Shown: positions 1-23,831 of the stretch, piece after piece | Position numbering within the stretch: the stretch's first letter is position 1 | Layout: every line of letters starts with the position of its first letter | From: a virus | Reading direction: 5' to 3' (one strand) | Virus record (IMG/VR): IMGVR_UViG_3300045988_115369 | DNA: 41,577 bases | Translations under genes and position numbers: made by a program | Notes under the pieces: model-generated | Seen by the model: the letters and a program-made list of their open reading frames with translations, nothing else | What the model was told of the DNA's origin: nothing | The model's database searches: none

Positions 1-119
1 AGACACGGCGTGCTGCTTCTTCTGCCCGTGCCTTTGCACGTCTTTCCAGTTCCAGTTCATCTTCAAGCGTGATATTTTCATAGTCCATGATATTCGTCCT
101 TTCTCTGAAAAAAAAAAAC
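1..119. repeat. Terminal direct repeat, copy 1 (identical to 41459..41577)
   Basis: Read directly. Both copies hold the first 88 nt of the RNAP CDS (ATG complement at 86..88 and 41544..41546), its RBS and an 11-nt A run. Positions 1..88 are therefore a truncated duplicate of the RNAP 5' end. Confidence 0.9.
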
Positions 120-125
120 ACACAT

Positions 126-155
126 AAGAAAAAGAGAGAACGAAAATGTTCTCTC
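126..155 (-). terminator. Hairpin plus U-tract between phage promoter phi-1 and the RNAP start codon
   Basis: Minus strand reads GAGAGAAC-AUUUUC-GUUCUCUC followed by UUUUUCUU. An 11-nt U run lies further downstream, before the RBS (AAAGGA). Confidence 0.6.
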
Positions 156-176
156 CCTCTATATGTGCCACAATTA
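154..176 (-). promoter_or_regulatory. Phage-RNAP promoter phi-1, directly upstream of the RNAP gene
   Basis: Minus strand TAATTGTGGCACATATA|GAGGGAGAG. It has the same 17-nt length and purine-rich start region as the T7 promoter TAATACGACTCACTATA|GGGAGA. Confidence 0.8.
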
Positions 177-178
177 GC

Positions 179-742
179 TTACTTGTCTATTTTATACAAA
201 ATTCTACTGCCACATGCATAATAACATCCATCATACTTATGGATACATTCAGGAAAACTTGCGGTGTCTTCTTCAAGTAAGTACAATTCATAACCGTCCA
301 TCAGCTTATTTCCTAATTCTTCGTTGTCAATACAATCAAGGAACATAGACGGTATATTTTTGAATGCATCTTTTTCGATAAGGAAGGCTGCTAATTCTGC
401 GGGGTTTCTGATATAGGTGTAGTTCTCATTCCTTCCACGCTGTACCCATCCGATCTGCCATGTCCTTGCTAAGATAAGGGAATCAAAAATACCTGCTTCT
501 GCTACGTCATCATAAACAAATGCAGCTTCAATCTGCATTGCCGTCATATCTATAAGTTTATGCAGAAACTTGATAATCATGTCTGCTTCCCAATCATCAA
601 TAGAGATGATATAGGAAGTATCATCATCTATTCCGATACGTTCATGCGGAAGATAGACAGTCAGGTATTCCCCTCTCTTGTCCGTTCTTACCCTAGCCCC
701 ACTGAATGGGAGCGTAAAATCAAAGCTATCTGTATCTAACAT
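179..742 (-). CDS. Acidic early protein, possible anti-restriction (ArdA-like C-terminal segment)
   Basis: The ORF-track stop at 179 is used. The start is moved to the ATG at 742, which lies 9 nt after AAGGAAGG. The protein is acidic; IDNEELGNKLMDG resembles the ArdA C-terminal motif. Confidence 0.55.
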   Translation of the reverse strand: MLDTDSFDFTLPFSGARVRTDKRGEYLTVYLPHERIGIDDDTSYIISIDDWEADMIIKFLHKLIDMTAMQIEAAFVYDDVAEAGIFDSLILARTWQIGWVQRGRNENYTYIRNPAELAAFLIEKDAFKNIPSMFLDCIDNEELGNKLMDGYELYLLEEDTASFPECIHKYDGCYYACGSRILYKIDK

Positions 743-761
743 GATTATCATCCTTCCTTGT

Positions 762-1358
762 CTAAAAATCCGTTCCATCTGCTAGGAACTCATAGTTTCC
801 TTCTGCTAATTCTGTACGAATGTAGTTATCACACGTATAGTATTCATAGTCAGCTTGTGCATTTTCATAAAGTCGTTCACATTCTTCTTTTCGCCATTCT
901 TCAAGGGCATCAATGAAATAGGCGTACTTCTCATCTTCTTCCATAGGGATGCCATCAATCAGTAATTCAATGTATGTATTCCACGAACGTGGATTAGAGC
1001 TAACCCATGAATACTTCGCTACACGAACTTCCCCATACTTTCTGATTTCATCAAGTACGGATGCTTTAATGCATCCTTTTGTATCAAAGTTTTTAGCTAC
1101 GTTGATTGCCATCTGTGCCGTTTCAAATTCTCCAGTGAACCCTGCCCCTGCTTCCGCATCATACATGGAAAAAGACACACTGTCTTTATCTACATTGAAC
1201 CCGTGGTCAGAAAACATGATGTCCGTGAAATCTTCACTTGTGTACTCTTCCCAATCAAGGGAATCTACCCATGTGTATCTGTACCTTTCCATTACTTCTT
1301 CCTGTACTTTCTTTTCCAGTTCATTGAATTTGTAAACTTTCTGTACTATTTCTCTCAT
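762..1358 (-). CDS. Acidic early protein, function unknown
   Basis: 198-aa ORF with RBS AAGGAAGG upstream, in the early-gene position. Confidence 0.6.
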   Translation of the reverse strand: MREIVQKVYKFNELEKKVQEEVMERYRYTWVDSLDWEEYTSEDFTDIMFSDHGFNVDKDSVSFSMYDAEAGAGFTGEFETAQMAINVAKNFDTKGCIKASVLDEIRKYGEVRVAKYSWVSSNPRSWNTYIELLIDGIPMEEDEKYAYFIDALEEWRKEECERLYENAQADYEYYTCDNYIRTELAEGNYEFLADGTDF

Positions 1359-1389
1359 GATAATTCCTTCCTTTCAAAACTGATCCCAC

Positions 1390-1785
1390 TTACTGTGCAA
1401 TTTCCAAGAAACCAAAGTCACATTCGATGAACCCATCATCCATAAGGGCATCTGCTACCTTGTCATAGTCCAGATAATCTTCTAATTTATCAAAGCTATC
1501 CCCCCAATAGCCTTCCACCCCTAACTCTTTGATTAAGTCTTCCCAATCCATTTCTTCTCTCCACCAAATTGAATGATTTGCAAGTTTTTCCAGTACTTCT
1601 TCTAAGTCATCCTGCACGTACTTAAGATACTGTTCCACGATAATCTGTTCATATTCTTCCAAGTCATCCAGTTCATCCTGTACTTCATCCGCTTTGAGAT
1701 ACGTCCAATACTTATCATCCACCGTGATTTCTTGATGATACTTGTTGATTTTGTTAAGAATATACTTATACATAGCCATTGCCAT
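1390..1785 (-). CDS. ArdA-like acidic early protein (putative anti-restriction DNA mimic)
   Basis: Very acidic. The C-terminus LEDYLDYDKVADALMDDGFIECDFGFLEI resembles the Tn916 ArdA C-terminus (NYIDYQAYGRDL...GIFEI), compared from memory. Three ATGs sit close together at the start. Confidence 0.55.
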   Translation of the reverse strand: MAMAMYKYILNKINKYHQEITVDDKYWTYLKADEVQDELDDLEEYEQIIVEQYLKYVQDDLEEVLEKLANHSIWWREEMDWEDLIKELGVEGYWGDSFDKLEDYLDYDKVADALMDDGFIECDFGFLEIAQ

Positions 1786-1812
1786 TCCACCCTTTCTTTT
1801 TAATCCTAGCCT

Positions 1813-1881
1813 GTCTCATCAGCATGGGTAGGCTATCCCCCATGGACTAGACACATCCTCTCTTGTGTGCCTAGTTTCGAC
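1813..1881 (-). ncRNA. Type II hammerhead ribozyme, copy A
   Basis: Minus-strand RNA: GUC-GAAAC-UAGGCACAC..GUGUGUCUAG-UC^-CAUGGG(GGAUAGCCUA)CCCAUG-CUGAUGA-GAC. All core nucleotides are present. Predicted cleavage falls between 1845 and 1844. Confidence 0.85.
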
Positions 1882-1882
1882 T

Positions 1883-2230
1883 TTATGCAATGAGTTCACC
1901 TGTCGTGATATCCACCACTTGTGCATGTAGCACGTCCAGTCTGTAGTTTTTGTTGTTTGCCACCATCTTTACAAGGGAAAATGGAATAATTCCATTTGTT
2001 CTACAGTGTTCATCAATGAACCATCGAATGTGTCGCCGTGTTGTCATGCTGTATAGCCCCGTGATTTCGAGACTATCCAGTGTTCCCTTGATTACAAGGG
2101 TATTGTAAGAGTACATTTCATATTCTGTAGACACATTGTCCTTGTTTGTGTCTACCCATACCGTGTAATTTTTTGTTGTGTGCTTGCCTTTTTCGATGTT
2201 GAACCATTTAAGCATTTTCATCATCCCCAC
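1883..2230 (-). CDS. Early protein, function unknown
   Basis: 115-aa ORF. The start is GTG at 2230 or ATG at 2224. The stop lies 1 nt from the 5' edge of hammerhead A. Confidence 0.6.
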   Translation of the reverse strand: MGMMKMLKWFNIEKGKHTTKNYTVWVDTNKDNVSTEYEMYSYNTLVIKGTLDSLEITGLYSMTTRRHIRWFIDEHCRTNGIIPFSLVKMVANNKNYRLDVLHAQVVDITTGELIA

Positions 2231-2462
2231 TTTCTTCTTCCTCTTCTTCTGAAATACCTAACGTCTCAAAAATCCAGTCTGAATCGAACCACATGATATC
2301 GTTTAATTCAGTTCTTCCAATTCCATCGGGATAGAGTTCTTCAATCATGTCACAAAATTCCTCCCCTTTGCCCTCTCTTTCAATACGTTCTGCCGTATCT
2401 ACAGCCCCACTCCATGCCGTTCTTCTAATGTCATTAAAATCCATTTCATCAAATACCTTCAT
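2208..2462 (-). CDS. Small acidic early protein with a poly-Glu tail
   Basis: Start moved to the ATG at 2462 (RBS AAAGGATGG). 84 aa, ending EEEEEESGDDENA. Confidence 0.55.
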   Translation of the reverse strand: MKVFDEMDFNDIRRTAWSGAVDTAERIEREGKGEEFCDMIEELYPDGIGRTELNDIMWFDSDWIFETLGISEEEEEESGDDENA

Positions 2463-2497
2463 AATAATTCCATCCTTTCTTTTTAATCCTGTAGCCT

Positions 2498-2567
2498 GTC
2501 TCATCAGAACGTGGGCGGCTATCCCACATTGACTAGACACACCCTCTCTTGTGCGTCTAGTTTCGAC
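2498..2567 (-). ncRNA. Type II hammerhead ribozyme, copy B
   Basis: Minus-strand RNA: GUC-GAAAC-UAGACGCAC(AAGAGAGG)GUGUGUCUAG-UC^-AAUGUGGG(AUAGCCG)CCCACGUU-CUGAUGA-GAC. Predicted cleavage falls between 2531 and 2530. Confidence 0.85.
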
Positions 2568-2569
2568 TT

Positions 2570-2935
2570 TTACTTGCTTTTCTTCACAAGCACAATTTTC
2601 AATTTATATGCCGTGTCTAAATGGTTGATATGGGTAACATCATCAAAGCAATATGCAACTAAGTTCCCTGCATAGTCACAACGTACCTTGAGAGTGCGCC
2701 CTGCATAAAAGCACACATCACCTTGTGCAATATCAGGTGAATCGTAACTACTGAATTTTTCAAGAATTTTGATTTCAATGCATTCCCATTTACCGTTTTC
2801 ATAACCTTCTTGCATTGCTATGAAATTTGAAATGCTGCCTTTAATCCTGCCGATAGCAAATTCATCAAACATAATCAACCCATTGTCTTTTGTCCATGTG
2901 TTCATGCCCCATGCCGTGATTTCTTTTCTTTCCAT
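2570..2935 (-). CDS. First early protein, function unknown
   Basis: Start moved to the ATG at 2935 (RBS GAAAGGAAG). The stop lies 2 nt from the 5' edge of hammerhead B. Confidence 0.6.
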   Translation of the reverse strand: MERKEITAWGMNTWTKDNGLIMFDEFAIGRIKGSISNFIAMQEGYENGKWECIEIKILEKFSSYDSPDIAQGDVCFYAGRTLKVRCDYAGNLVAYCFDDVTHINHLDTAYKLKIVLVKKSK

Positions 2936-3436
2936 GATTTTTCTTCCTTTCTGAATGTGTTCCGTTGTTCCTACACGCTTAACAAAAAAATTTGAGACAC
3001 CATCTCTTGATGGTTGGAATACCACTGATTAGTTCAATGGTTTAGAGACTAGATACAGCATGATTTCACTACCTTTCACCTACACCGTTCCATTTCATCG
3101 TCTGCGCTTGCCCCGTCATCACAAGATACCTTGCTAGACGTTGTAAGCACACACTCTATGAGACTGTCCACTACTCAGCCCTGCCGTATATCGCAAGCTA
3201 CTTTCATGACTTCTCAGTGTGTATCTTCACTGTCATGTTGCCACCGCTTTTCCCGATGACTTTCTTTTTTTCGTATGGTGTGAATTGATACTACGCATGC
3301 AGTAAGTTCACCATTCGCATTTTTCAGCTATTCAGTTTTCAAAGAACCCGATGATGTTTTGGGGTATCCCATCGCGTCACCGTCAATTTTTCGTTCTTAG
3401 TGGTATCACTTCCTTTCGTTCGTTCACTGTGCCTAC

Positions 3437-3465
3437 ATTGTAGCACGTTGTTCCTACATTGTCAA
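3437..3465 (-). promoter_or_regulatory. Host sigma-70/SigA early promoter P1
   Basis: Minus strand TTGACA, a 17-nt spacer and TACAAT, with an extended -10 TG (TGCTACAAT). Confidence 0.85.
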
Positions 3466-3654
3466 GAAGATTTTTCCTCTAGTTCTCTCTGTCGTCTTAC
3501 CATTCCGCCGTGAATACGTTGCCGTTCGCGTTCGCAATGTGCGTTGTTCTGAGTTCTTCCACCACGCTATCCATACATGTGCTACAGATAGCATTTTCAG
3601 AATCGGGGCGGTGCGCCTTGCGGTGTTCCGTCCGTGTCATCCTTGACTGTCCAT

Positions 3655-3683
3655 ATTGTATCATGATGTTCCTACACCGTCAA
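3655..3683 (-). promoter_or_regulatory. Host sigma-70/SigA early promoter P2
   Basis: Minus strand TTGACG, a 17-nt spacer and TACAAT, with an extended -10 TG (TGATACAAT). The spacer is a paralog of the P1 spacer. Confidence 0.85.
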
Positions 3684-3825
3684 GGATAAATTTGCATTTC
3701 TTTGTGGAGAAATTTTGTTCGCATGGTATACCATACCCCCGTAGGGTATCCATGATTGTCAACCATGGCATGCTAGTAGCACGTTAGTAGTAAGAGATTA
3801 AATCTTACAAGTACATATATAGGCA

Positions 3826-3847
3826 AACAGGGCTTGCTCGCCCTGTT
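3826..3847. terminator. 8-bp GC-rich hairpin between the integrase region and the early control region
   Basis: AACAGGGC-TTGCTC-GCCCTGTT. The minus strand continues with TTTGCC. Confidence 0.4.
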
Positions 3848-3862
3848 CCATTTAAGTATAAT
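3834..3862 (+). promoter_or_regulatory. Candidate host-type promoter for the integrase
   Basis: Plus strand TTGCTC, a 17-nt spacer and TATAAT. The -10 sits inside the palindrome GTATAATA-A-TATTATAC. Confidence 0.4.
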
Positions 3863-4005
3863 AATATTATACTAATACATTCCACCCTGCCCCAGCGATA
3901 ACGGCGAGCGCGTGGAGGGTACGGGGGAAAACAGCCGGGGCAATTTTAATGAATACCCTTTCACAATTTTTATAATTTTTTGTTTTAAGAAGGAGGAACA
4001 TCATC

Positions 4006-5160
4006 ATGAAAAGACAAAGGGCACCACGAGGGCAAGGAAGTATCACACCATACGGAGATGGAAAATTCAAAGGCATCATCACCATTGGATACAAACTAGA
4101 TCCAGTGACGAAGAAGAATAAACGTCTCACAAAAACCTTTACAGGAAAGACAAGGAAAGAAGTTCAAGCAAAGATCACTGAGTATCAGTACAAAGTAAAT
4201 GCAGGGAAGATCAATCCATTGGCAGCTCCCCTTACATTCAAACAGTACAGTGAACGATGGTTAATGATGAAAAAGACAACACTGAAACCACAGACATACA
4301 GAAACTATGAGAGTAATATGCAGTGTCTTGATTTTGGCAACAAAGTGATGAAAGACATAACAGTTTCAGACGTCAACACGCTGCTCCTAACATTGCTACA
4401 GACACTCTCCCCTGCCACTGTACGAGGAAGGCACACCCTATTGAAAAGTGTCTTTGAAGGAGCAAGAAAGGAAAAACTCATTATAGAGAATCCTGTAGAA
4501 GACAGCATGCGTATCAAGGCACAGGTAGATCACACTGTGACAGAAATGCATGTCTTAACGAAAGAAGAGAGTACGAATGTTCTATTAAAAGCTAAGGAGA
4601 TGAAAGCTCCCATATGGTTCTACCCTCTGATACGTACTGCCTTAGAGACAGGGATGAGAAAAGGAGAGCTGCGTGCCTTACAGTACAAAGCACTGGGTAA
4701 AGACACCATCTATATAAAAGCAAGTGTAGAAGACAGTGCAGGGAAAGGGGCAACTCTCACAACGCCTAAGACACGTGCCTCTGTAAGGAGAATACATGTG
4801 TCTACATCACTCATTGAGATACTACAGGCTCTTCCCCATAAAGATGAAAACAGTTTTGTCTTTCACACTAAGAATGAGACTTTAATTGCTAATAGTGATA
4901 TACAGTACTACTTTAATACGCTAAAGAAAGTAAGTAACATAGACAAACCACTTCACTTCCACGATCTAAGACACACCCATGCCACCCTTCTTATCATGGC
5001 AGGTGTGAACATCAAGACCGTCTCTACTCGCCTAGGTCACGCATCTGTATCCATCACGTTAAACAGGTACACACACGCCCTTCCGCAGCAAGATAAAGAA
5101 GCTAGTGAAATGATTTGTAGTATGCTACTATCGGATACTACGATGAAAGACAATCAGTAA
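4006..5160 (+). CDS. int: Tyrosine recombinase / phage integrase
   Basis: RBS AGGAGG lies 8 nt upstream. The N-terminal Arm-type DNA-binding segment is GSITPYGDGKFKG...GKTRKEVQAKI. Catalytic motifs are HDLRHTHAT and LGHASVSITLNRYTH. It is the only plus-strand gene. Confidence 0.95.
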   Translation: MKRQRAPRGQGSITPYGDGKFKGIITIGYKLDPVTKKNKRLTKTFTGKTRKEVQAKITEYQYKVNAGKINPLAAPLTFKQYSERWLMMKKTTLKPQTYRNYESNMQCLDFGNKVMKDITVSDVNTLLLTLLQTLSPATVRGRHTLLKSVFEGARKEKLIIENPVEDSMRIKAQVDHTVTEMHVLTKEESTNVLLKAKEMKAPIWFYPLIRTALETGMRKGELRALQYKALGKDTIYIKASVEDSAGKGATLTTPKTRASVRRIHVSTSLIEILQALPHKDENSFVFHTKNETLIANSDIQYYFNTLKKVSNIDKPLHFHDLRHTHATLLIMAGVNIKTVSTRLGHASVSITLNRYTHALPQQDKEASEMICSMLLSDTTMKDNQ

Positions 5161-5212
5161 TAAATACCCTAGATACCCCTATAGAATGTAATTGGGGTAC
5201 GTATATACATCT

Positions 5213-5261
5213 AAATACCGTATGACATAATATCGTCCTTATTAACAGACATACGGTATTT
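5213..5261. terminator. 12-bp inverted repeat between the convergent int and membrane-protein genes
   Basis: AAATACCGTATG, 25 nt, CATACGGTATTT, then TTCTG. The loop is large for a classical terminator. Confidence 0.4.
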
Positions 5262-5310
5262 TCTGTATCTTTTAGGGATAATACTACTATCTGGCTACTA
5301 CCTCTTCTAA

Positions 5311-5910
5311 TTAAAATCTAATCTTATAACTTGCTTGAAATCCATCAACTTTGTTGTCTTTGACATTCAGTTGGAAAGACACCCCTTTATTGTACCCAAA
5401 ATTCCTTTGTACTTCAATGGGAACGTACCATTCATTAGACACCCTTCCTATCCCAGCACCCACTTCCCACTTGTGCTTCTTTTCGTAGTCTTTGAAGATT
5501 GGTGTGAGGTCTAGCGTTTGATCGACACGTGCAGTGGTGGGAGTGGAAGTAGTAGAGGATGAAGGAGAAAGAGGTGTGTCTTTTAATGTTTTTTTAATGT
5601 ACTTATCTTTAACTGGTATCTGAATGTCATTACCATTGATGACTGCATGATAGTGGTTATTCAGAATCAAATCTGGATCAGACGTATTGGTTTTACTTGC
5701 TGCTGTTATTTCAGTAGTCAAAGAGGGTGAAGTATAAGAATCTGTAGTTGTAGTTGTTTTTGTTGTTCCTTCTTTATACCCTTTATCATACCCATAATGA
5801 TAAATCATTGTTGTTGTTCCAATAAAGAAAATCATCAGAATAATAACAATAAGGATATTTCTTTTATTTATATCATTAAAATCAATCACTTTAGAATCAC
5901 CTATTTTCAT
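5311..5910 (-). CDS. Membrane-anchored Thr/Ser-rich protein with an OMP-like C-terminus
   Basis: Start at ATG 5910 (the ORF track uses GTG at 5952). It has an N-terminal TM helix (ILIVIILMIFFIGTTTMI), a T/S-rich linker, and ends with the alternating pattern GFQASYKIRF and a terminal Phe. Confidence 0.6.
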   Translation of the reverse strand: MKIGDSKVIDFNDINKRNILIVIILMIFFIGTTTMIYHYGYDKGYKEGTTKTTTTTDSYTSPSLTTEITAASKTNTSDPDLILNNHYHAVINGNDIQIPVKDKYIKKTLKDTPLSPSSSTTSTPTTARVDQTLDLTPIFKDYEKKHKWEVGAGIGRVSNEWYVPIEVQRNFGYNKGVSFQLNVKDNKVDGFQASYKIRF

Positions 5911-6088
5911 TCTCAATACTGTAATAAAGGATGTAGACCTTCGGTGTGTCACATTGAAAGTTCTAATAGTTTACACACATAGTGATTCACATGCTATACC
6001 TAGTGCAGGAAACATATATCTCTTATTTCATAGAGTTCCAAGTTACAGAAACAAGAGATACATGTATATAATATAGATTCCCTCAGTC

Positions 6089-6111
6089 TCCCTTTCTACG
6101 TGCCACAATTA
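6089..6111 (-). promoter_or_regulatory. Phage-RNAP promoter phi-2
   Basis: Minus strand TAATTGTGGCACGTAGA|AAGGGAGAC. Confidence 0.8.
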
Positions 6112-6115
6112 GAAC

Positions 6116-6138
6116 TTTGTATATATGTGCCACAATTA
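6116..6138 (-). promoter_or_regulatory. Phage-RNAP promoter phi-3 (tandem with phi-2)
   Basis: Minus strand TAATTGTGGCACATATA|TACAAAG, 27 nt upstream of phi-2. Confidence 0.75.
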
Positions 6139-6162
6139 GGCTTTCTTTAGGTCTTTCCTAAA

Positions 6163-7959
6163 CTAGAGTTGTCTTTTATATGAAACTTTCTCCGCTGTGT
6201 TTAGATCCTTTAACATTGCCAGTTTCACCTTGCTATAGTTCTCTCTGCCAACAGGTCTAGGGTTTGTCTGATTCAGTTCTGGAATATAGAAGATACCTCT
6301 GTCTGGGTCATCCCATTGTTCAAGTAATTCATCAAGCTGCTCATCCATCCCTGTTTGATAATCCCTATCCATAGAGTTAGCAAAGAACTCTACAGCCATA
6401 GTGACAGCATCCAGTCTATCATCATGAGCAAGTGCCCCTCTTTCATTGGTGAGACGTGTCATTTGATAGATTAAAGAATAGTTAGGACTAGATTCATACG
6501 TCTTATAGTCAGCAGTGATTACCCCTTTATTGACAATGAGCTTGTGTCTCATCATAACAGGTTCAAGGGTGTCTATAATACGCTGTTCCTTCTGTGCCTT
6601 ACTTCTGATTTCTTCCAAAGCACATGGATAGATTCTGGTAAAGATAGGAGCAAGAAGTTTGCCAAACATACCATCACCAAAGTTAGATTCATAGACAACT
6701 GTGTTGACCTTCCAGAACTTAGCTTTGTTAGCCAGTGTCTCCAATGTGTTATCGCTGTAACCAGAGGTATAACCACCACTTTCCATCAAGAACAAATAGC
6801 CATTAAGGTATTTGATGATTGCATATGCTGTTTCATCCTTACCACGTCCAGATGGGTCAATAGCCATAACTGTTCCAGTGTATTCAGCTGTTTCTGGGGA
6901 CTGCAAGAGAGGAGAATAGAAGTAGTCACCTTTAAGAGCAACAGACGCAATGTCTTTCCATCTCTTTGTAGGATCAGCAGTCCAAGACCATTTTAGACTA
7001 GCTTCATTCATGTCCAAATCCGCTACAATCAAGTCCTGGACTTTAAGTGGATACTTCTCTGCATCAGATAGATTCGTACTGAGCATGAACTGAAGAGCAA
7101 ACCCAGCCTTACCATAAGACAGTTTACGCTTCTCAATTTCCTCTAGATTGAATCTATCAGGGTCTGTAGGTATGCACTTATCAGCATAAAACTCTGGGTC
7201 TGTATCATAAGAATCTGCGATAAAGGGGGCTAAATCATCCCCATATGCCTCTCTTTCTTCTGTAGATGCTGGATATAAGACAGGCCAGATGCATCTGCTA
7301 TAACCACGTTTAGTTAATTCATTATAGAGACTCATTTCATTCTGAGGAGTTCCCAAATAAATGATTTTACCACCAGGTTTTAAGATTGCATCAAATTCCT
7401 TTACAGCCTCTCCTAGTTTATCCCTCTGTATCTGAGTGCCTGAATTTTTAGGTACTTCTACGTCATCAGCAATCAGAATGTCTGCACGAGAACCTGTAAT
7501 CTGCCCTGTGATCCCTACAGACTTTACAGAAGGAGAAATATCAGGAACAGCAGGGCCGACATCAAATAGATTCTGGGTATCTCGCTGTCCTCGCTGTGTC
7601 TGTAAATGCTGCAAGAAAGGTATCAAGTAAATAATACGTTTAATAAAAATAGCATTCGCATCTGCTCTATGTTTAGATGCAGATACAACTAATACCTTTA
7701 ATTGAGGGTCTTTCCAAAGCATCCAAACTGTGTAAGCACAAGTCAAAAAAGACTTTGCTACCCCACGGAAGCCCTCAACGATACTTCGGTCTGTAGGGGT
7801 GTTCATAAGGTACTTTGCAATATCATATTGGATAGGTGTAGGGTCTGGAAGACTAATAGATTTCCAGACAATGAACACAAAGATACGAAAGTCCTCATGC
7901 GCCCTTTTAATTTGATCTTCTGTCCAGCATGCTTCTGTAAAATCAGTTAAGTCGATCAA
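6163..7959 (-). CDS. terL: Terminase large subunit (T7 gp19-like)
   Basis: 598 aa. Walker A-like GFRGVAKS, the ADDVE segment, a C-terminal nuclease region, and the T7 gene position. Confidence 0.93.
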   Translation of the reverse strand: MIDLTDFTEACWTEDQIKRAHEDFRIFVFIVWKSISLPDPTPIQYDIAKYLMNTPTDRSIVEGFRGVAKSFLTCAYTVWMLWKDPQLKVLVVSASKHRADANAIFIKRIIYLIPFLQHLQTQRGQRDTQNLFDVGPAVPDISPSVKSVGITGQITGSRADILIADDVEVPKNSGTQIQRDKLGEAVKEFDAILKPGGKIIYLGTPQNEMSLYNELTKRGYSRCIWPVLYPASTEEREAYGDDLAPFIADSYDTDPEFYADKCIPTDPDRFNLEEIEKRKLSYGKAGFALQFMLSTNLSDAEKYPLKVQDLIVADLDMNEASLKWSWTADPTKRWKDIASVALKGDYFYSPLLQSPETAEYTGTVMAIDPSGRGKDETAYAIIKYLNGYLFLMESGGYTSGYSDNTLETLANKAKFWKVNTVVYESNFGDGMFGKLLAPIFTRIYPCALEEIRSKAQKEQRIIDTLEPVMMRHKLIVNKGVITADYKTYESSPNYSLIYQMTRLTNERGALAHDDRLDAVTMAVEFFANSMDRDYQTGMDEQLDELLEQWDDPDRGIFYIPELNQTNPRPVGRENYSKVKLAMLKDLNTAEKVSYKRQL

Positions 7960-8206
7960 TATCTACACCGTCTTTCACATCATCAAAAATGGGGATGCGC
8001 TGACGCTCAATCTGCTGCTGTATGTCTGCAACACCCTTAGTGCGAGGGGAGACAATCAAATCATTGTCTTTCAAGAATTTTCTTACACGGTCAAGGAAAC
8101 GTGGGTCTTTCCGCATTTCTGGGTCAGCAAGCCCTTCACGGATCGCTTGTACTTCACCCTGTGCAATTTCATCCAAAAGTGCAGGATCAATTTCAAACAT
8201 CTTCAT
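7943..8206 (-). CDS. terS: Terminase small subunit (T7 gp18-like), called by position and size
   Basis: Start moved to the ATG at 8206 (or 8200), giving about 87 aa. It lies immediately upstream of and overlaps terL. Confidence 0.55.
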   Translation of the reverse strand: MKMFEIDPALLDEIAQGEVQAIREGLADPEMRKDPRFLDRVRKFLKDNDLIVSPRTKGVADIQQQIERQRIPIFDDVKDGVDIDRLN

Positions 8207-23755: not shown

Positions 23756-23831
23756 TGGTGTCTCTTTAAGGACTTGAACCTTAAACCTTCTGGGCATGAA
23801 CCAGATGCTCTAACCATTGAGCTAAAGAGAC
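23756..23831 (-). tRNA. tRNA with anticodon CAU (elongator Met or Ile2 type), CCA encoded
   Basis: The 76-nt sequence folds by hand as a cloverleaf: acceptor GTCTCTT/AAGAGAC, D arm GCTC/GAGC, anticodon arm TCTGG-TTCATGC-CCAGA, T arm TAAGG-TTCAAGT-CCTTA, discriminator A, then CCA. It is not initiator-like: the 1:72 pair is G:C and there is no triple G:C in the anticodon stem. Confidence 0.93.

Follow-up and report, generated by a model that had tools for sequence, protein, structure and literature searches.

Two type II hammerhead ribozymes in the early operon of a predicted T7-like temperate phage of Dialister: a candidate module for RNA self-processing

Results

Two hammerheads occupy intergenic gaps of the early operon

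The DNA studied here, IMG/VR virus record IMGVR_UViG_3300045988_115369, comprises 41,577 nucleotides (nt) and is referred to in its full length as the window. Its minus strand, to which all positions of ribozymes and early genes given below refer, encodes two type II hammerhead ribozymes, Hammerhead 1 (HH1) and Hammerhead 2 (HH2), between genes of a putative early operon. Early gene 1 (2570..2935; 121 amino acids, aa; no family match) ends with the stop codon TAA at 2572-2570, 2 nt before HH1. Early gene 2 (2208..2462; 84 aa; isoelectric point, pI, of 4.05; phrog_5149), with the Shine-Dalgarno sequence AAAGGA in front of it, starts with ATG at 2462, 35 nt past the GAC strand of HH1, and its end is overlapped by early gene 3 (1883..2230; about 112-115 aa; phrog_4264). 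The stop codon of gene 3, TAA at 1885-1883, lies 1 nt before HH2, and the ATG of early gene 4 (1390..1785; 131 aa; pI 4.05) follows 27 nt past the stem II strand of HH2. In the early operon of the window, intergenic gaps of ~100 nt occur only at the two ribozyme sites.

A first-pass annotation, made from the sequence alone, had proposed a complete type II hammerhead at 2498-2567, beginning 2 nt after the upstream stop and ending about 35 nt before the next start. These distances hold, and when the minus strand of 2572..2460 is read directly, every element that had been listed for the core is found. Stem II is open and only 3 bp long, consisting of the 3' strand GUC (2567-2565) and the 5' strand GAC (2500-2498). 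The GUC strand is followed by the core nucleotides G12 A13 A14 (2564-2562) and by stem III, in which A15.1 (2561) pairs with U16.1 (2532) and CUAGACGCAC (2560-2551) with GUGUGUCUAG (2542-2533) around the loop AAGAGAGG, 11 bp in all when the A15.1-U16.1 pair is counted. C17 of the GUC cleavage triplet is at 2531, and the predicted cut between 2531 and 2530 is the one that had been named. Stem I, formed by AAUGUGGG (2530-2523) and CCCACGUU (2515-2508), has 8 bp and the loop AUAGCCG, and the core sequence CUGAUGA (2507-2501) leads back to stem II. The pairs flanking the core, G10.1-C11.1, A1.1-U2.1 and A15.1-U16.1, are canonical.

The proposed pseudoknot is also present: UAGCC in loop I (2521-2517) is complementary over 5 bp to the tail GGCUA (2496-2492), which A2497 precedes, and this pairing is backed by covariation in relatives. 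As the pseudoknot tail belongs to the ribozyme, the functional element reaches 2492 and not 2498; the annotated span was right for the core and short by the tail. HH1 as a complete type II ribozyme including its tail occupies 2492..2567, as supported by direct reading, the Rfam family RF02276, our own covariance model R1, covariation and shuffled sequences. Between the end of the tail at 2492 and the AUG at 2462 there are 29 nt, which contain AAAGGA. Directly before HH1, a 7-bp hairpin, GCUUGUG(AAGAAAAG)CAAGUAA (2571-2592, minus strand), takes in the final codons of gene 1 together with its stop, and it is near-invariant among relatives (alignment A1).

The first-pass annotation treated HH1 as a single element and missed HH2, a second type II copy at 1807..1881, which is found by a descriptor scan, by direct reading, by model R1 and as a repeat of HH1. 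In HH2, stem II is formed by GUC (1881-1879) and GAC (1815-1813), GAA occupies 1878-1876 and stem III extends over 1875-1846 with 10 bp, including A1875-U1846. C17 is at 1845 with a predicted cut between 1845 and 1844, stem I consists of CAUGGG (1844-1839) and CCCAUG (1828-1823) with 6 bp, CUGAUGA lies at 1822-1816 and the pseudoknot joins the loop UAGCC (1835-1831) to the tail GGCUA (1811-1807). HH1 and HH2 share a 54-nt direct repeat with 91% identity at a spacing of exactly 686 nt, and both hold the conserved core, i.e., CUGAUGA, GAA, the A15.1-U16.1 pair and C17. The segment between the two C17 sites (1845..2530), likewise 686 nt, carries genes 2 and 3.

Covariance-model scores and chance expectation

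Against Rfam RF02276 (Hammerhead_II), HH1 scores 35.2 bits with an end-to-end match at 2568..2490, corresponding to E = 9.4e-6 on 301 nt and to E = 0.0013 for the whole window and all 4227 families. The gathering score of this family is 37 bits, so the covariance-model support expected by the first-pass annotation exists as a low E-value, with a bit score 1.8 below the threshold. A default Rfam scan of the window lists tRNA only and no hammerhead, and a scan of 1700-2000 returns no Rfam match for HH2 even at E<=1. Our model R1 assigns 105.9 bits to HH1 and 95.1 bits to HH2. The shortfall of HH1 is small and is caused by the long stem III and by the stem I/loop geometry, not by the core; a homologous copy (L060:1617-1694) passes the gathering score with 37.1 vs 37. 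Both HH1 and HH2 possess all structural features that define the type II family, and among its sequence-based criteria they miss only the Rfam bit-score cut-off.

A minimal type II descriptor (GAAA, CUGANGA, H17 not G, stems of >=4, 4 and 2 bp, zero mismatches) finds 2 sites in the window vs a mean of 0.07 per dinucleotide-shuffled window (300 shuffles), and with the observed stem lengths (>=6, 9 and 3 bp) none of 1000 shuffles matches. A chance match is in practice excluded.

Conservation and covariation in related phages

When IMG/VR was searched with gene 2 and the RNA polymerase of the phage, 70 loci were obtained. Model R1, a covariance model built from 21 copies and leaving the pseudoknot outside, finds 30 ribozymes in these loci, 28 of them distinct, with one to three per early region, and one more in a Dialister prophage. 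The ribozyme-bearing relatives range from 98% down to 61% RNA polymerase identity, plus L060 (49%). With R1, no hammerhead is found in relatives with ~45% RNA polymerase identity, nor in two Phascolarctobacterium loci. In 20 related early regions, no other Rfam ribozyme reaches its gathering score; only the hammerhead of L060 does.

On the model-guided alignment of the 30 copies, 93.9% of all cells are paired vs 28-42% once the partners are shifted by 1-3 columns. Compensatory changes occur at 16 of the 27 base pairs, in stem I at all 8 and in stem III at 6 of 11, 22 nested pairs are supported, and none of 500 shuffles reaches the observed values. Stem II shows no compensatory change in its 3 pairs, two of which never vary, and is therefore uninformative. 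The pseudoknot is 94% paired across relatives, with A-U to G-C exchanges in 5 sequences and C-G to U-A exchanges in 11. Since the pseudoknot is absent from the model, this support is independent of the alignment procedure.

The core positions are invariant in 27 of the 28 distinct relatives, and H17 is C or A, never G. A core-inactivating change is present in only 1 of the 31 copies, the second hammerhead of L017 (L017:3795-3881), which reads CUAAUGA (G5A) with an otherwise intact fold and which, to judge from this sequence, was probably inactivated recently. An extra U between A9 and G10.1 (CUGAUGAUGAC) occurs in 3 of the 5 copies of L024 and L065 (L024:2181-2263, L024:3089-3171 and L065:3274-3356), and in the copy at L024:2181 the 3-bp stem II is also interrupted by an A-A mismatch.

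It might be argued that the two sites are a chance resemblance or a plain pair of hairpins, acting as terminator or RNase III site and devoid of catalysis, and the Rfam score under the gathering threshold would fit such a view. This is hardly credible, because the strict descriptor finds nothing in shuffled sequences, because covariation is counted in all four helices (stem II itself without compensatory change), and because the invariant CUGAUGA and GAAA are single-stranded, so that hairpins alone cannot explain the conservation. Stem III was considered as a terminator and ruled out, as no U-run follows it; as an RNase III site it was ruled out as well, the stems (8-11 bp) being too short for a classical site.

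Placement between genes and cassette behaviour

Among the 31 mapped copies, 30 have a callable upstream open reading frame (ORF), and in 28 of these 30 its stop codon lies <=6 nt before the ribozyme. The next start is 23-36 nt past stem II in about two-thirds of the 31 copies (scripted placement), and most of the remaining placements are mis-calls from the ATG inside CUGAUGA. In HH1 this ATG is in frame with gene 2 with no stop between (2208-2540, minus strand), and because of it mechanical ORF calling extends gene 2 into the ribozyme (98-110 vs 84 aa). Some database homologues of gene 4 are called with 145-177 aa, longer than 131 aa, perhaps from a similar cause. A 121-aa homologue of gene 1 precedes the first hammerhead in most close relatives; in L015, L019 and L025 it has 133-144 aa.

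In the single-ribozyme genomes L016, L021, L026 and L071, exactly the stretch from the 5' edge of HH2 through the end of gene 4 is missing. To judge from this exact absence of HH2 together with gene 4, ribozyme, ribosome-binding site (RBS) and gene behave as one cassette. Across genomes, stem I variants are swapped between first and second positions, a pattern that suggests exchange between copies.

The same observations could be explained by a selfish or neutral repeat, in which a hammerhead-plus-RBS unit of ~100 nt serves as recombination linker for early-gene cassettes and cleavage is without consequence. The shuffling of stem I variants between positions and the behaviour of HH2 plus gene 4 as an indel bounded exactly at the ribozyme 5' edge both suit this explanation. 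We regard it as unlikely, for the core is kept in all but one of 31 copies and compensatory changes preserve both stems and pseudoknot, which indicates that selection acts on the folded RNA and not on DNA identity alone.

Two near-identical co-oriented ribozymes 686 nt apart, with two or three copies in several relatives too, also recall a circular RNA factory. The gene 2-3 segment would be released and ligated by the ribozyme or by host RtcB, and ligation would restore the hammerhead in full. In retrozymes and viroid-like circular RNAs (PMC7229834), two co-oriented hammerheads likewise bracket a unit-length RNA. Those are eukaryotic, of type I or III, and yield non-coding circles via rolling-circle or retroelement cycles, whereas here the RNA is an ordinary coding mRNA. 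The obligatory pair of ribozymes that characterises such RNAs is not found, since the second ribozyme is optional among relatives: it is absent in L012, L016, L021, L026 and the Dialister prophage L071, and in L017 it carries G5A, which should kill it. The genes of the segment have ordinary starts and stops, 686 is not a multiple of 3, and Perreault et al. sought circular or spliced products from comparable clusters and found none (PMC3088659). Circle formation is thus very improbable.

A wider pattern scan of IMG/VR with GTCGAAAC N30-60 CTGATGAGACA finds at least 120 loci from many environments. Among the matches listed (120 loci), the stop codon of an open frame with 50 codons or more lies <=10 nt from the ribozyme in 130 of 147 copies, vs 45 of 735 random positions; in 58 of the 147 copies the G of UAG is common to the stop codon and stem II, and the next start with an RBS before it follows at a median distance of 29 nt. 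This spacing fits insertion into minimal intergenic spacers, and compaction may explain all of it. An unrelated viral contig (L098:8402-11318, IMGVR_UViG_3300008255_000242) has 7 co-oriented type II pattern matches within 3 kb, and L143 and L097 have four and three copies, respectively.

As the stop codon lies 1-2 nt before the stem II strand, and is similarly close in 130 of 147 copies of the wider sample, translation termination might gate cleavage. Under a ribosome on the upstream stop, the GUC strand, G12-A14 and the first part of stem III would be hidden, and cleavage would be blocked until the end of the cistron is ribosome-free. If this were true, the ribozyme would register whether the upstream gene is being translated, and what becomes of the downstream message would depend on it. 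The idea is quite improbable, and compactness alone could yield the stop-to-ribozyme spacing on which it draws.

Phage genome, early region and host

The ends of the window are identical over 119 nt (1-119 and 41459-41577), and it is therefore a closed circular assembly of 41458 unique bases, in which the ATG of the RNA polymerase gene, present twice at 88 and 41546, is the same base. Nearly all genes of the window are on the minus strand. According to PHROGs and Pfam, they include a T7-type single-subunit RNA polymerase gene (38982..41546, minus strand) and a T7-type large terminase gene (7959..6163); a tyrosine integrase gene (4006..5160) is on the plus strand. A tRNA-Met gene (anticodon CAT; 23756-23831, minus strand) lies between the capsid and tail-tube genes. 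Due to the circular closure, the genes from 2935 to 179 run straight into the RNA polymerase gene and form an early region.

Upstream of gene 1 there are two sigma-70-type promoter matches on the minus strand, TTGACG-17-TACAAT (3683-3655) and TTGACA-17-TACAAT (3465-3437), both with a TG-extended -10 element, which presumably mark the region where host RNA polymerase starts transcription of the early operon. A repeat resembling a phage-polymerase promoter (TAATTGTGGCACGTA...) occurs in 8 copies in the window, all on the minus strand, at 176-149, 6111-6084, 6152-6124, 30220-30193, 35648-35621, 38308-38277, 38516-38489 and 38554-38526. In it, a purine-rich stretch comes after TAATTGTGGCAC(G/A)TA..., the copies look like a promoter set of a T7-type phage polymerase, and one copy stands directly before the RNA polymerase gene itself. 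No copy is found between the sigma-70-type promoters and the end of gene 6. With sigma-70-type matches upstream and no such repeat inside, the early operon is probably transcribed by host RNA polymerase, as the first-pass annotation had assumed when it placed HH1 between the first and second genes of a host-made early transcript.

Between gene 6 and the polymerase gene there is a 13-bp hairpin (160-129, minus strand; AGAGGGAGAGAAC...GUUCUCUCUUUUU) with a long U-run ~10 nt further on. It has the look of an intrinsic terminator ahead of the polymerase gene, but it overlaps a copy of the promoter-like repeat, and it may be a terminator or an attenuator. From the second promoter to the ATG of gene 1 extends a leader of ~500 nt (2936-3436, minus strand) with no ORF of >=35 aa in the transcribed direction. 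The motif TGTAGGAACA has 4 exact minus-strand copies, of which two (3676-3667 and 3458-3449) are in the spacers of the sigma-70-type promoters, one (2975-2966) is 30 nt before gene 1 and one (38981-38972) follows the polymerase stop; with one mismatch allowed, there are 9 matches vs 3.7 expected. TGTAGGAACA could be an operator on which a repressor of this temperate phage acts.

Four of the five early proteins encoded downstream of HH1 (179-2462, minus strand) are strongly acidic (genes 2 and 4, gene 5 with pI 4.29 and gene 6 with pI 4.53), and each ribozyme is directly followed by the gene for an acidic protein. The early proteins flanking the ribozymes have no Pfam match even at E<=5 and fall into PHROGs families of unknown function only, sequence searches of PDB with genes 2, 4 and 5 gave no match, and homologues of gene 4 are unnamed ones in close relatives. 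That the acidic proteins encoded after each ribozyme are DNA-mimic anti-restriction proteins like ArdA or Ocr was suspected and found no support. The order of ribozyme and acidic protein recalls the association of ardA with a preceding hammerhead (PMC3088659), again with no homology found.

A megablast search of window positions 1-8000 against GenBank phages gave no match, and in their RNA polymerase the nearest cultured phages reach an identity of ~36% at most. A 2.5-Mb contig of Dialister sp. i34-0019-2H8 harbours a prophage (L071; NZ_BAABYQ010000001.1, 2002960-2019521) whose polymerase is 78% identical. The integrase gene of this prophage (L071:2358-3569, minus strand) lies beside host DNA and adjoins the same early operon, which carries the first hammerhead only. 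The presence of this related prophage in a Dialister chromosome indicates that the host of the phage is a bacterium of the Negativicutes, and by its gene content and this relationship the window is assigned to a temperate T7-like phage infecting Dialister, a gut bacterium.

Discussion

The motif as observed, conserved and covarying in relatives, placed between genes and behaving as part of a cassette, is our basis for the reading that HH1 and HH2 are catalytically competent and constitute a processing and insulating module in the probably host-transcribed early operon of a temperate Dialister phage, and we estimate a probability of roughly 60% for this reading. Judged from sequence, the most likely function would be that the early polycistronic RNA processes itself into pieces capped by hairpins, and we infer that cleavage occurs in vivo and affects RNA stability or translation. 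Once ~75 nt of each element have been transcribed, stems III and I would form as hairpins, the 3'-terminal GAC would close the 3-bp stem II with the 5' GUC, and the GGCUA tail would pair with loop I and so keep stems I and II parallel. Self-cleavage would follow, 3' of C2531 and C1845. Three pieces would result, the leader with gene 1, the 686-nt piece with genes 2-3, which would carry 5'-OH and 2',3'-cyclic phosphate ends, and a piece with genes 4-6, from which transcription may continue into the polymerase gene. Upstream pieces would end with a 2',3'-cyclic phosphate one nucleotide past the 10-11-bp stem III hairpin, and downstream pieces would carry their 5'-OH where the stem I hairpin begins, with the Shine-Dalgarno sequence ~50 nt further on. 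As both stop codons stay on the upstream pieces, no non-stop message would arise. Processing and insulation would proceed without a host RNase, and the module would travel with the downstream gene.

Predicted folds of the products are consistent with a protective role for HH1. Its 5' product is predicted to end in the strong stem III hairpin (-23.7 kcal/mol, z = -5.35), and in its 3' product only the 5' stem I hairpin is predicted to be stable, with the Shine-Dalgarno region open. For the 3' product of HH2, the predicted fold lacks stem I and part of the region around the Shine-Dalgarno sequence is paired.

The opposite outcome, a down-regulating or timing device, would arise if the 5'-OH ends were attacked by RNase J or other RNases, shortening the life of the downstream message or of that of gene 1. 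In Firmicutes, cleavage by the glmS ribozyme leaves a 5'-OH product that RNase J1 degrades. The end chemistry would be the same here and the Negativicutes are a Firmicutes lineage; in addition, a 2019 review considers differing stabilities of processed pieces possible (PMC6765202). However, the 3' product of HH1 opens with a single unpaired nucleotide and an 8-bp hairpin, which would make it a poor substrate for 5' exonucleases. For HH2 this differs, as its 6-bp stem I is absent from the predicted minimum-energy fold. The linkage of the ribozyme with its downstream gene in a cassette is also easier to explain if that gene benefits, and we consider down-regulation rather unlikely.

Several points weigh against self-processing as we propose it. 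Self-cleavage of HH1 and HH2 is predicted from their sequence, HH1 is below the Rfam gathering score and HH2 is unreported by Rfam. By analogy with glmS, the RNA downstream of the cut could lose stability in a Negativicutes host, unless its terminal stem I hairpin keeps the exonuclease out. The tight placement between stop and start may just mean that phage genomes are compact. T7-like relatives that are more distant, with ~45% RNA polymerase identity or from Phascolarctobacterium, have neither a hammerhead nor any other Rfam ribozyme, and hence the element is dispensable for this genome plan. Finally, the 28 distinct sequences come from few close phage lineages, mostly from one metagenome, so that the covariation counts overstate the number of independent events.

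In T7 itself, the early polycistronic mRNA is cut between genes at RNase III sites. These sites resemble the processing proposed for HH1 and HH2 in that the cuts are intergenic, affect host-made early RNA and leave a 3' hairpin on the upstream message. They differ in consisting of long imperfect hairpins recognised by a host protein enzyme, whereas HH1 and HH2 would be self-cutting RNAs leaving a 5'-OH and a 2',3'-cyclic phosphate, and the likeness would be that of a functional analogue, not of a homologue. Synthetic ribozyme insulators of the RiboJ type, reportedly described by Lou et al. in 2012, also have a self-cleaving hammerhead before the RBS and give a defined hairpin-capped 5' end whatever lies upstream, as HH1 and HH2 would. 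RiboJ is engineered from a type III satellite RNA ribozyme, whereas HH1 and HH2 are natural, of type II and have a pseudoknot.

The closest known systems are the type II clusters of prophages. Perreault et al. 2011 reported the first natural type II hammerheads, in which a pseudoknot joins loop I to the 3' tail of a short stem II; in most examples it has at least 4 bp and involves the nucleotides just 3' of stem II (PMC3088659). Such ribozymes are frequent near prophage integrase genes, and clusters of them, for example in Clostridium scindens, in Azorhizobium caulinodans and around ardA of Agrobacterium tumefaciens, flank single genes or short blocks (PMC3088659). Cleavage was shown in vitro for three clusters or tandem sets and in E. 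coli for one, flanking ardA, and the suggestion was that long phage transcripts are processed into gene-length mRNAs (PMC3088659). With these clusters HH1 and HH2 share the core, the permutation, the short open stem II, the pseudoknot and the proposed role, as well as the intergenic position in a phage operon near an integrase gene, with multiple co-oriented copies flanking genes. Unlike them, HH1 and HH2 reside in an uncultivated T7-like temperate Dialister phage and are tied to host promoters and to the early stage before the phage polymerase acts.

A hammerhead in an early polycistronic transcript, as is HH1, is also known from the haloviruses HF1/HF2, for whose HHphage a 5' end has been mapped no more than 3 nt away from the cleavage site, suggesting activity in vivo (PMC3088659). 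HHphage differs from HH1 and HH2 in being a variant hammerhead in an archaeal virus, in single copy, just upstream of the first ORF and 13 nt before its start codon. According to the 2019 review, the role of the hammerheads of bacteria and phages, which number in the hundreds, is still unresolved (PMC6765202).

The arrangement of HH1 and HH2 was thus already described for prophages in 2011, and the two add a good further example to a kind of element that is known. What is new is modest: a T7-like temperate Dialister phage as carrier, the link to a host-transcribed operon preceding the phage polymerase, the second copy, the cassette behaviour and the measured abutment of stop codons. Default Rfam thresholds miss this hammerhead clade, and annotation pipelines for phages therefore overlook its ribozymes and may extend ORFs into them from the ATG inside CUGAUGA. 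For the role of hammerheads in phages, the system is well placed for testing, because the early operon is short and has recognisable host-type promoters, because the T7 genome plan is the textbook case of protein-mediated intergenic RNA processing, and because natural relatives differ in presence, absence or inactivation of the second ribozyme. The Dialister strain that carries L071 may be an isolate and could serve as an experimental system.

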